From the IMG/VR virus record IMGVR_UViG_3300044655_001017: a stretch of DNA of 64,000 nt; one strand, given 5' to 3'. Under the pieces are notes generated by a model that had not been told where the DNA came from, made no database searches, and saw only the letters and a program-made list of their open reading frames with translations. Position numbers and translations under genes: made by a program. Below, one piece after another: positions 14,692 to 15,693 of this stretch. The stretch's first letter is position 1. Each line of letters begins with the position of its first letter. Source of the DNA: a virus (taxonomy: Duplodnaviria; Caudoviricetes).

Positions 14692-15693
14692 ATGTCAGCT
14701 ACAATTGAAACGGTAAAAGCAGAAGCTAAAGAAGCTTCACTTTTGAACAAACCAGCTATGCTCGCAGGTGCAGCACTATATATAGTGTTTTACGGGTGGG
14801 TTCGTTGGTATGAGGGTGTTTATGGATGGTCAGCTGGTTTAGACTCATTTGCGCCAGAATTCGAAACATACTGGATGAACTTCCTATATATTGAAATGGT
14901 ACTAGAAATCGTAACCGCTTCTGTATTATGGGGTTATATCTGGAAAAGTCGTGATCGTAAAGTGATGTCAATCACACCACGTGAAGAATTGCGTCGTCAT
15001 TTCACACATTGGGTATGGTTAGTAATGTACGGTATCGCAATTTATTACGGTGCTTCATACTTTACAGAACAAGACGGTACATGGCATCAAACGATTGTCC
15101 GTGATACTGATTTTACACCAAGTCACGTTATTGAGTTTTATCTAAGTTATCCTATTTACATCATCACAGGCGTTTCTGCATTCTTATATGCTAAAACACG
15201 CTTGCCTACCTACCAAAAAGGTTTACCATTACAATACTTAGTATCAGTAATTGGACCTTTCATGATTCTTCCAAACGTTGGTTTAAACGAATGGGGTCAT
15301 ACTTTCAACACAGGAAGCTCATTATAGCAATGTAATGATGAAAACTCTGTGAAAACGGTGAACATCCAGAACGGACAATACCGTGCCAAGCTTAGAAATA
15401 AGAAGGTGTAACGACTATCCCGAAAGGGAGTACACTCAAGTGAGTGGAAGCGCAGAGCAACCTAAATGGTTGATGAGATAGTCTGCTCTAACTGGGAACA
15501 GTTAGCAGTTCATAAGAGAACGGTATAAGCGTAACGAACTTATATGAACATAGGCTGGTTTATGGAGGAGTTGTTTGTAGCCCCTCTACATTACGGGTTT
15601 GTATTTTTTGGATGGGCTGCACTTGGTGTATTAGGTGTAGTAAATATCGAAGTACAAGCAATATCTAAATTGTTGAAAAGCGATTTAGCTTAA
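14692..15693 (+). CDS. pmoC: particulate methane monooxygenase subunit C, two exons (14692-15305 and 15555-15693; 250 aa spliced)
   Basis: EQDGTWHQTIVRDTDFTPSH and [28 protein letters not shown] PmoC signatures; AGGAG RBS before ATG 14692. Confidence 0.93.
15306..15554 (+). mobile_element. ORF-less group I intron (IA2-like), 249 nt
   Basis: 5' exon ends in U and intron ends in G; P3 CTCTGT/GCAGAG, P4 ACGGT/ACCGT, P7 GACTAT(15413)/ATAGTC(15478), P7.1, P7.2, P8, P9; removal restores the frame. Confidence 0.9.

Follow-up and report, generated by a model that had tools for sequence, protein, structure and literature searches.

A group I intron lacking an open reading frame splits the copper-site segment of a phage pmoC gene and belongs to an intron family with seven insertion sites in related phages

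Introduction

Among viral genes thought to enhance methane oxidation, phage pmoC is the best-known example, and in about one fifth of the published pmoC-phages, which are large freshwater phages, it has been recorded as a fragmented gene. Chen et al. (2020, PMC7674155) reported pmoC to be 'fragmented into two pieces' in 4 of 22 pmoC-phages (TP6_1, BML_3, BML_4 and LR_6), with a large N-terminal piece, a small C-terminal piece and a transcribed 'non-coding region' between them; in LR_6, the small C-terminal piece had a lower RNA coverage. The word 'intron' is absent from the text and supplement of that paper (PMC7674155), and no explanation of the fragmentation is offered. Here, we analyze a stretch of 64,000 nucleotides from a virus of the class Caudoviricetes (IMG/VR virus record IMGVR_UViG_3300044655_001017), hereafter called the window, in which a group I intron without any open reading frame (ORF) splits pmoC inside the segment encoding the ligands of the CuD copper site.

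In phage T4, the td intron encodes the endonuclease I-TevI internally, and the gene orf142 of Staphylococcus phage Twort contains three group I introns. For the cyanophage S-PM2, PMC6083498 describes an ORF-less intron in psbA that blocks cleavage by F-CphI, the product of an adjacent free-standing gene, which cuts intron-less psbA. The 'collaborative homing' of Zeng, Bonocora and Shub (2009) is summarized in the same paper. A literature search returned no paper linking pmoC or methane monooxygenase to a group I intron, in line with the first-pass annotation of the window, a model's reading of the sequence alone, which knew of no self-splicing intron described in a methane monooxygenase gene.

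An insert splits pmoC between two ligands of the CuD site

On the + strand, the ORF that opens at ATG 14692 stops at 15327 when read without splicing, with the tail GHTFNTGSSL, and its product of 211 residues lacks His217, the last of the CuD ligands, as the first-pass annotation had pointed out. Removal of 15306-15554 joins exon 1 (14692-15305, + strand; 204 codons and two nucleotides, ending in ...ACTTT) to exon 2 (15555-15693, + strand; starting with CTGG and comprising the rest of codon 205, 45 codons and the stop) and yields the intact PmoC of 250 residues that had been proposed. Exon 1 aligns with positions 6-202 of the Pfam AmoC profile (PF04896; E = 3.4e-100) and exon 2 with positions 203-244 (E = 1.8e-15), so the two pieces of pmoC abut to the residue, and a full-length match (positions 6-244) runs across both exons. 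The 249-nucleotide insert enters the codon of Phe205 after its second base (phase 2), between the CuD ligands His203 and His217, and ends in ...ATAGG, the omega-G being at 15554. Stop codons are found throughout all three forward frames of the insert, which agrees with its description as free of ORFs.

The copper ligands were placed through the PmoC of the intron-less locus L003, which aligns over its full length (1-250) with 6cxh_C, a PmoC chain of solved structure (E = 6.5e-155), and, free of gaps, with M. capsulatus PmoC (1yew_C) at an offset of +28. With this offset, D128, H132 and H145 of the window protein correspond to Asp156, His160 and His173 of the CuC site, and N199, H203 and H217 to Asn227, His231 and His245, the CuD ligands in PDB 7s4h (PMC12576850). 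The early assignment of the N..H...H segment to the CuD site is therefore correct. Exon 1 encodes the CuC ligands D128/H132/H145 together with the CuD ligands N199 and H203, exon 2 encodes the CuD ligand H217, and all CuC and CuD ligands are kept once the transcript is spliced.

A scan of IMG/VR gave 80 phage pmoC loci (L numbers); L174, L175 and L176 were found by a pattern scan of metagenome contigs. Loci L003-L007, L009-L011 and L013 carry pmoC as a continuous single ORF with 92-96% amino-acid identity (tblastn with the spliced protein). In the DNA alignment, L003, L004, L009 and L013 read ACTTT/CTGG at the junction, with exactly the 249 nucleotides absent. One C is ambiguous at the intron boundary, and only the pair 15305/15306 and 15554/15555 keeps the frame with a U at the exon end and a G at the intron end; such a single frame-keeping boundary exists in 12 of 13 pmoC introns. 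The insert occurs once in the window, and it is present at the same base in the separately assembled contigs L008, L012, L174, L175 and L176, where the intron is 94-95% identical and exon 1 only 82-87%.

The insert folds as a group I intron, with conserved and covarying helices

The whole window was scanned against Rfam, where the gathering score of the group I intron model RF00028 is 50 bits. It contains one match to this model (15296-15505, + strand, model positions 1-253) with a score of 69.2 bits (E = 1.8e-15), so the group I reading of the first-pass annotation passed the covariance-model check. The Rfam match ends at 15505, and the last 49 nucleotides of the intron were delimited by comparison with other introns. 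The predicted fold of the insert has a minimum free energy of -73.3 kcal/mol (z = -5.05), with none of 200 shuffled sequences as stable.

In the Rfam alignment, the P1 hairpin (15302-15317) pairs the exon end CUUU and the first intron C with the guide GGAAG, and places the U-G pair at U15305 and G15314. The ribozyme core spans 15320-15483 on the + strand. It comprises P2 (15320-26/15331-37), P3 (15345-50/15452-57), P4 (15355-60/15379-84), P5 (15365-67/15373-75), P6 (15385-87/15405-07), P6a (15391-94/15399-402), P7 (15413-17/15479-83, GACUA/UAGUC), P7.1 (15418-21/15426-29), P7.2 (15433-37/15442-46) and P8 (15458-63/15467-72). The peripheral 3' helices (15488-15545) are P9 (15488-94/15499-505), P9.1 (15508-11/15518-21) and P9.2 (15523-29/15539-45). 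The helices named in the first-pass annotation (P1 with its U-G pair, P3, P4, P6, P7, P7.1, P7.2, P8 and P9) were all mapped, and only its P10 came out weak, a point taken up below.

Eleven pmoC introns (mean column identity 72%) were aligned and folded together with RNAalifold. The consensus contains P2, P3, P4, P5, P6, P6a, P7.1, P7.2, P8, P9, P9.1 and P9.2, together with a P10-like pairing with the 3' exon, and compensatory double changes are found in 53 of 67 pairs. Covariation supports the conserved core P3-P8, including the P3/P7 pseudoknot. The additional helices P7.1, P7.2, P9.1 and P9.2 also show covariation. The P7 pairing GACUA/UAGUC is invariant except in the intron L037_G, where it is changed compensatorily to GACCA/UGGUC.

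In a blastn search, the intron core is 70-82% identical to introns in 517 GenBank phage records. The matches lie in genes for DnaB helicase, DNA polymerase, terminase and thymidylate synthase, where phage group I introns typically reside. No pmoC was matched by blastn among the GenBank phages, only the intron core, and a PmoC protein search of GenBank phages gave no match. The insert at 15306-15554 is a group I intron. By resemblance of its helices, with P7.1 and P7.2 between P7 and P3' as well as P9.1 and P9.2, it would belong to subgroup IA, where it is td-like and probably of type IA2 rather than IA1 or IA3.

One intron family occupies seven sites in phage pmoC genes

Related phage contigs carry introns at seven pmoC sites, numbered here on the window protein, with six of them clustered in a stretch of 23 codons that surrounds the CuD ligands. 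Site C, within F205, is occupied in the window, L008, L012, L174, L175 and L176 (guide GGAAG). The other sites are A, between G45 and W46 (L040, guide GCCG); B, between G202 and H203 (L038, guide GGCUCC); D, within F207 (L037 and L038, guide AGCCA); E, between A214 and P215 (L014, L038, L175 and L176, guide GGGCG); F, at G219/F220 (L001 and L002, guide GGCUC); and G, between G224 and W225 (L037 and L038, guide GGCCG). Ten homologous introns at these six other sites have different guides, each complementary to its own upstream exon, a pattern that is hard to explain unless selection acts on the P1 pairing and hence on splicing. The U-G pair at the 5' splice site is present in all 11 related introns, and every spliced coding sequence regains the conserved PmoC segment. 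Besides the covariance model, the group I reading is independently backed by intron-less alleles, covariation and guides that track their exons.

The related inserts score 64-105 bits on RF00028 where they were scanned and detected. With gathering and E-value thresholds alike, the introns of L008, L012 and L014 went undetected when stretches of tens of kilobases were scanned against Rfam. The L008 copy, 95% identical to that of the window, reaches 63.9 bits when a stretch of 361 nucleotides is re-scanned; its miss is an artefact of the speed filter. Filter misses of this kind imply that larger group I surveys with default filters under-count the pmoC intron family.

Several pmoC genes carry more than one intron. 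L038 (IMGVR_UViG_3300047476_001516) has four homologous introns at 1540-2612, at sites B, D, E and G, all within 23 codons and leaving micro-exons of 13, 23 and 30 nucleotides, and two pmoC introns each are found in L037, L175 and L176. The site B intron of L038 (1540-1790) ends in ...AAAACA, without an omega-G, and from this ending could be a defective copy or one that is spliced at a different 3' site. In L175 (5584-6120) and L176, on contigs of ERZ1034361 and ERZ1034363, introns at sites C and E enclose a micro-exon of 28 nucleotides. Over its whole length, the site E copy shares about 81% identity with the site C intron, rising to 86% over the best local match of 227 nucleotides, which suggests a recent spread to the neighboring site. 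As a separate observation, the 30-kb contig of L038 carries a fifth group I intron (L166, G005:C1:8670-8874, 85.1 bits), which interrupts a different gene roughly 6 kb away from pmoC.

A tree built from 13 introns splits into two clades (support 100/100), one with the introns of sites C and E and the other with those of sites A, B, D, F and G, and introns of the same site mostly cluster. All five sites of the A/B/D/F/G clade follow GGU. The L040 intron (3130-3382) lies near the 5' end of pmoC, and its target motif CGGT/TGGT is that of site G, so sites A and G have this motif in common. Such shared targets suggest a switching of sites guided by RNA pairing. Whichever way it was reached, the part of phage pmoC that encodes the CuD site is a hot spot for one intron family.

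The pmoC introns are a phage feature in the genomes searched

The window PmoC is 85-94% identical to that of Methylobacter, Methylomonas, Methylovulum and Methylotuvimicrobium genomes and metagenome-assembled genomes. The best 80 bacterial or metagenome-assembled pmoC loci are all uninterrupted. In the order of Methylotuvimicrobium sp. KM1, RF00028 matches were found in 7 of 151 sampled genomes, none within pmoC. A complete relative of 372 kb, whose pmoC is intron-less, contains no group I intron anywhere. Within the genomes searched, the pmoC introns are a phage feature.

Between site C alleles the intron is more similar than its flanks, and pmoC adjoins a homing endonuclease gene

Compared to L008, the window is 76.5% identical in the DNA upstream of pmoC, 84.9% in exon 1, 94.8% in the intron, 91.4% in exon 2 and 74.3% in the downstream endonuclease gene. 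The comparison with L175 and L176 is similar, with 94.4% in the intron and 82.5% in exon 1. The closest relatives of the window are L001 and L002 (94% in exon 1 DNA and 96% downstream), which have no site C intron; they carry an intron at site F, 70% identical to that of the window, and a different endonuclease gene. Since close relatives differ in their introns, the introns turn over faster than the phage backbone. Co-conversion next to the intron was also considered. At two flanking positions, nucleotides 606 and 621 of the coding sequence, the window shares its base with L008, which bears the intron, and differs from L001, otherwise its closest relative. With only two informative sites, which are too few to count as evidence, this candidate tract was set aside.

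Directly downstream of pmoC and convergent with it, a free-standing gene at 15711-16364 on the - strand, 157 nucleotides from the 3' end of the intron, encodes a protein of 217 residues that matches PHROG 314 'homing endonuclease' (E = 2.8e-24). Its alignment shows an N-terminal IY...YIG motif, and the protein also has a faint NUMOD3 motif and two zinc-finger modules of the form CPHC...MTRYHF..NCK. Homologues from L038 and one other locus pass the Pfam GIY-YIG cut-off, and some also pass that of NUMOD3. A PDB profile search with the window protein gave no match. As its fold model is weak and its matches to I-TevI are not significant, we describe the window enzyme as GIY-YIG-like.

Comparable free-standing genes on the opposite strand lie directly downstream of pmoC in L008, L012, L174, L001, L002, L037, L038, L175 and L176, and in L175 this is a canonical GIY-YIG endonuclease gene (6264-7022, - strand). 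In L040, the endonuclease homologue (2161-2742, - strand) is upstream of pmoC, on the side nearer the 5' intron. The syntenic L003 has neither the intron nor the endonuclease block, its DNA ligase gene following directly after pmoC. By analogy with collaborative homing, the window endonuclease would cut intron-less pmoC and the intron would shield its own genome from cleavage. The intron is a mobile selfish element, and its spread among co-infecting pmoC phages is probably coupled to that of the convergent gene at 15711-16364.

Predicted splicing, spread and the alternatives

The comparisons above establish the identity of the intron, its boundaries, its structure, the conservation of the exon frame and the co-occurrence with the endonuclease gene. 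Among intron-bearing alleles, exon 2 is under purifying selection, with synonymous and non-synonymous differences of 9 and 2 from L008, 9 and 4 from L014, and 4 and 0 from L001, and this selection gives indirect support for splicing. From these data we infer that the intron splices in vivo, by steps taken over from the group I family. The primary transcript would fold so that the guide GGAAG pairs with the exon end CUUU/C, with U15305 opposite G15314. Free guanosine would attack after U15305, the released exon would attack after the omega-G at 15554, and the religated mRNA (...ACUUU/CUGG...) would encode the intact PmoC of 250 residues with all CuC and CuD ligands. Taken as a whole, we consider it very probable that the window holds an ORF-less, td-like intron of subgroup IA in a phage pmoC, which self-splices and probably spreads with the neighboring endonuclease gene.

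Several observations weigh against this interpretation. P10 is weak in the window, with 4 of 6 predicted pairs formed. The window endonuclease reaches only E = 0.17 on SegE_GIY-YIG, below the Pfam cut-off, and its AlphaFold model has a pLDDT (predicted local distance difference test) of 62, with Foldseek matches to I-TevI (E = 0.26) and other GIY-YIG domains that are not significant. L014 has an intron and no adjacent endonuclease gene, and L021, L039 and L074 have an intron-less pmoC with an adjoining endonuclease gene; these three loci may either have yet to gain an intron or have lost one. The co-occurrence that favors the endonuclease, with an adjacent homologue in 7 of 8 distinct intron-bearing alleles versus 3 of 70 intron-less loci (Fisher p = 3.5e-7), was judged by a test that overstates independence, since the endonuclease queries came from intron-bearing loci and the loci are related. 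Finally, four metatranscriptome runs were compared with the region, as assembled contigs only, and a lake contig of 181 nucleotides (run X5) joins 15305 to 15555 but mismatches exon 2 at 9 of 141 positions; it may come from an intron-less phage allele or from a host pmoC mRNA.

The alternative that survives best leaves splicing untouched and concerns the neighbor. The endonuclease could be an independent selfish gene, with intron-less homing like that of T4 Seg/Mob, while the intron persists by descent, recombination or reverse splicing, and we give this a real, though minority, chance. It is favored by the endonuclease homologues beside intron-less pmoC and by the intron of L014 without one, as well as by the unequal divergence from L008 (74% for the endonuclease gene versus 95% for the intron), so that the two have no single common history. 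The occurrence of one intron clade at five sites ending in GGU, with CGGT/TGGT at both A and G, likewise fits a targeting by RNA pairing. The co-occurrence of intron and endonuclease gene is nevertheless plain from the counts, both elements are absent together in the syntenic L003, and the gene lies on the side of pmoC nearer the intron, L040 included. A tested precedent for a partnership also exists in S-PM2 psbA and F-CphI, as described in PMC6083498. We therefore keep the reading of joint spread, in which the part played by the endonuclease and the mode of spread would follow the S-PM2 analogy. As a side observation, the downstream GIY-YIG genes of L021, L039 and L074 are 52-53% identical to that of L038.

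Splicing might also act as a regulatory switch that times pmoC expression with the GTP level or the stage of infection, the unspliced state giving a fragment without His217 or no product. The position of the intron in the catalytic copper-site segment is circumstantially in its favor. However, no regulatory element was found, close relatives are intron-less and others have introns elsewhere, for which a selfish insertion at conserved sequence is a better fit, and we hold such a switch to be improbable.

The remaining RNA data are of limited weight. In run X1, a phage contig of 903 nucleotides ends exactly at 15306, which would fit a branch at the splice site but shows no more than that. The depth over exon 1 in X3 and X5 consists of many short diverged contigs, probably from host or other pmoC mRNA. 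The RNA contigs gave no unambiguous spliced junction, a point in favor of a dead intron, with pmoC being a true pseudogene or coding for a truncated PmoC of 211 residues without His217. The fragmented pmoC in four phages of Chen et al. (2020), with the lower RNA coverage of the C-terminal piece in LR_6, could be read in the same way, as could the related site B intron of L038, whose last base is A rather than G and which is possibly defective. Contrary to this, the core helices, the U-G pair and the omega-G of the window intron are all intact, the changes between alleles are compensatory, and the guide matches the exon. Moreover, exon 2 stays in frame with mostly synonymous change (9 to 2 relative to L008), which is unexpected for an untranslated remnant. 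A dead intron is accordingly very unlikely. That the insert is an assembly chimera, or else a repeat or insertion element of unrelated origin, can be set aside almost entirely. Nothing speaks for it other than the metagenomic type of the sequence, and the same insert sits at the same base in five other separately assembled contigs (L008, L012, L174, L175 and L176), matches the group I model and has a single copy in the window.

Expression signals and gene neighborhood of pmoC

A sigma-70-like promoter candidate on the + strand (14546-14573; TTGACT, a spacer of 16 nucleotides and TATAAT) matches the consensus at 11 of 12 positions, a pattern match only, and in total the region holds no more sites of this kind than shuffled sequences do. 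Between this site and the pmoC start codon, two hairpins are seen at 14585-14669, one of which (14634-14659 plus tail) is terminator-like with a run of T; it may act as an attenuator in the leader or may terminate the upstream gene. A separate translation of exon 2 from ATG 15544 as an ORF of 49 residues was considered and rejected: no Shine-Dalgarno sequence precedes this ATG, it is part of a 3' sequence, TGAAC, common to nearly all related introns, and a lone exon 2 product would still leave exon 1 without His217. A GC-rich palindrome (15699-15724), read from the sequence between the convergent pmoC and endonuclease genes, is probably a two-way terminator hairpin, although the terminator scan did not flag it.

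In the wider neighborhood, pmoC is flanked by genes for ClpP (13798-14385) and an ATP-dependent DNA ligase (16614-17972), and at least six tRNA genes are clustered at 4182-5935 on the + strand (Rfam tRNA, 53-72 bits). These surroundings fit a large phage genome.

Discussion

The fragmented pmoC genes of Chen et al. (PMC7674155) are of the gammaproteobacterial type and are split as introns at sites B to G would split them. By this likeness, the genes of TP6_1, BML_3, BML_4 and LR_6 quite likely contain introns of the same family. If fragmented genes are intron-split, they are functional, which changes the counts of active viral pmoC as well as the way in which gene callers and metatranscriptome mappers should handle them. 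Selfish elements heavily attack pmoC exactly at the segment coding for its copper site.

A broader reading, to which we lean slightly, is that this hot spot has been colonized by a radiating ORF-less family that would move in an RNA-guided, reverse-splicing-like manner at (C/U)GGU and spread with GIY-YIG genes, the published fragmented pmoC genes being intact and functional. Within it, how the introns moved and whether the published cases belong to the family are the parts that we infer. Phage pmoC offers a natural system for the study of intron spread, site switching and the intron-endonuclease partnership in uncultured giant phages. Besides probably explaining a published oddity, the locus combines an unusually dense intron hot spot with the psbA/F-CphI arrangement in a different endonuclease family.

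Compared to known systems, the window intron is most similar to the phage IA2 introns, namely T4 td, nrdB and nrdD and those of phage DNA polymerase, DnaB, terminase and thyA genes. Their common P1-P10 architecture includes P6a, P7.1, P7.2, P9.1 and P9.2; they share with the window intron the U-G pair at the 5' splice site and the omega-G, and they too are inserted in highly conserved, catalytically important coding segments. The difference lies in the host gene, pmoC being an auxiliary metabolic gene, and, relative to T4 td, in the lack of an internal endonuclease ORF. The occurrence of several related introns close together in one gene (four in L038, two each in L037 and L175) recalls Twort orf142. 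However, the four introns of L038 are packed into 23 codons with micro-exons of 13, 23 and 30 nucleotides, and the pmoC of the window has one intron only.

The S-PM2 psbA/F-CphI system (PMC6083498) has in common with the window pmoC a host-derived auxiliary gene of a large phage, an ORF-less intron and an adjoining free-standing endonuclease gene. This makes pmoC the second independent auxiliary metabolic gene, besides cyanophage psbA, with such an arrangement. F-CphI is an enzyme of the Endo VII type, while that of the window is GIY-YIG-like with zinc fingers and is encoded convergently with pmoC. Unlike S-PM2 psbA, the relatives of the window pmoC have introns at seven sites and as many as four in a single gene. 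Taken together, these comparisons identify the insert as a group I intron of the kind typical of phages, in a host gene that is new for it.

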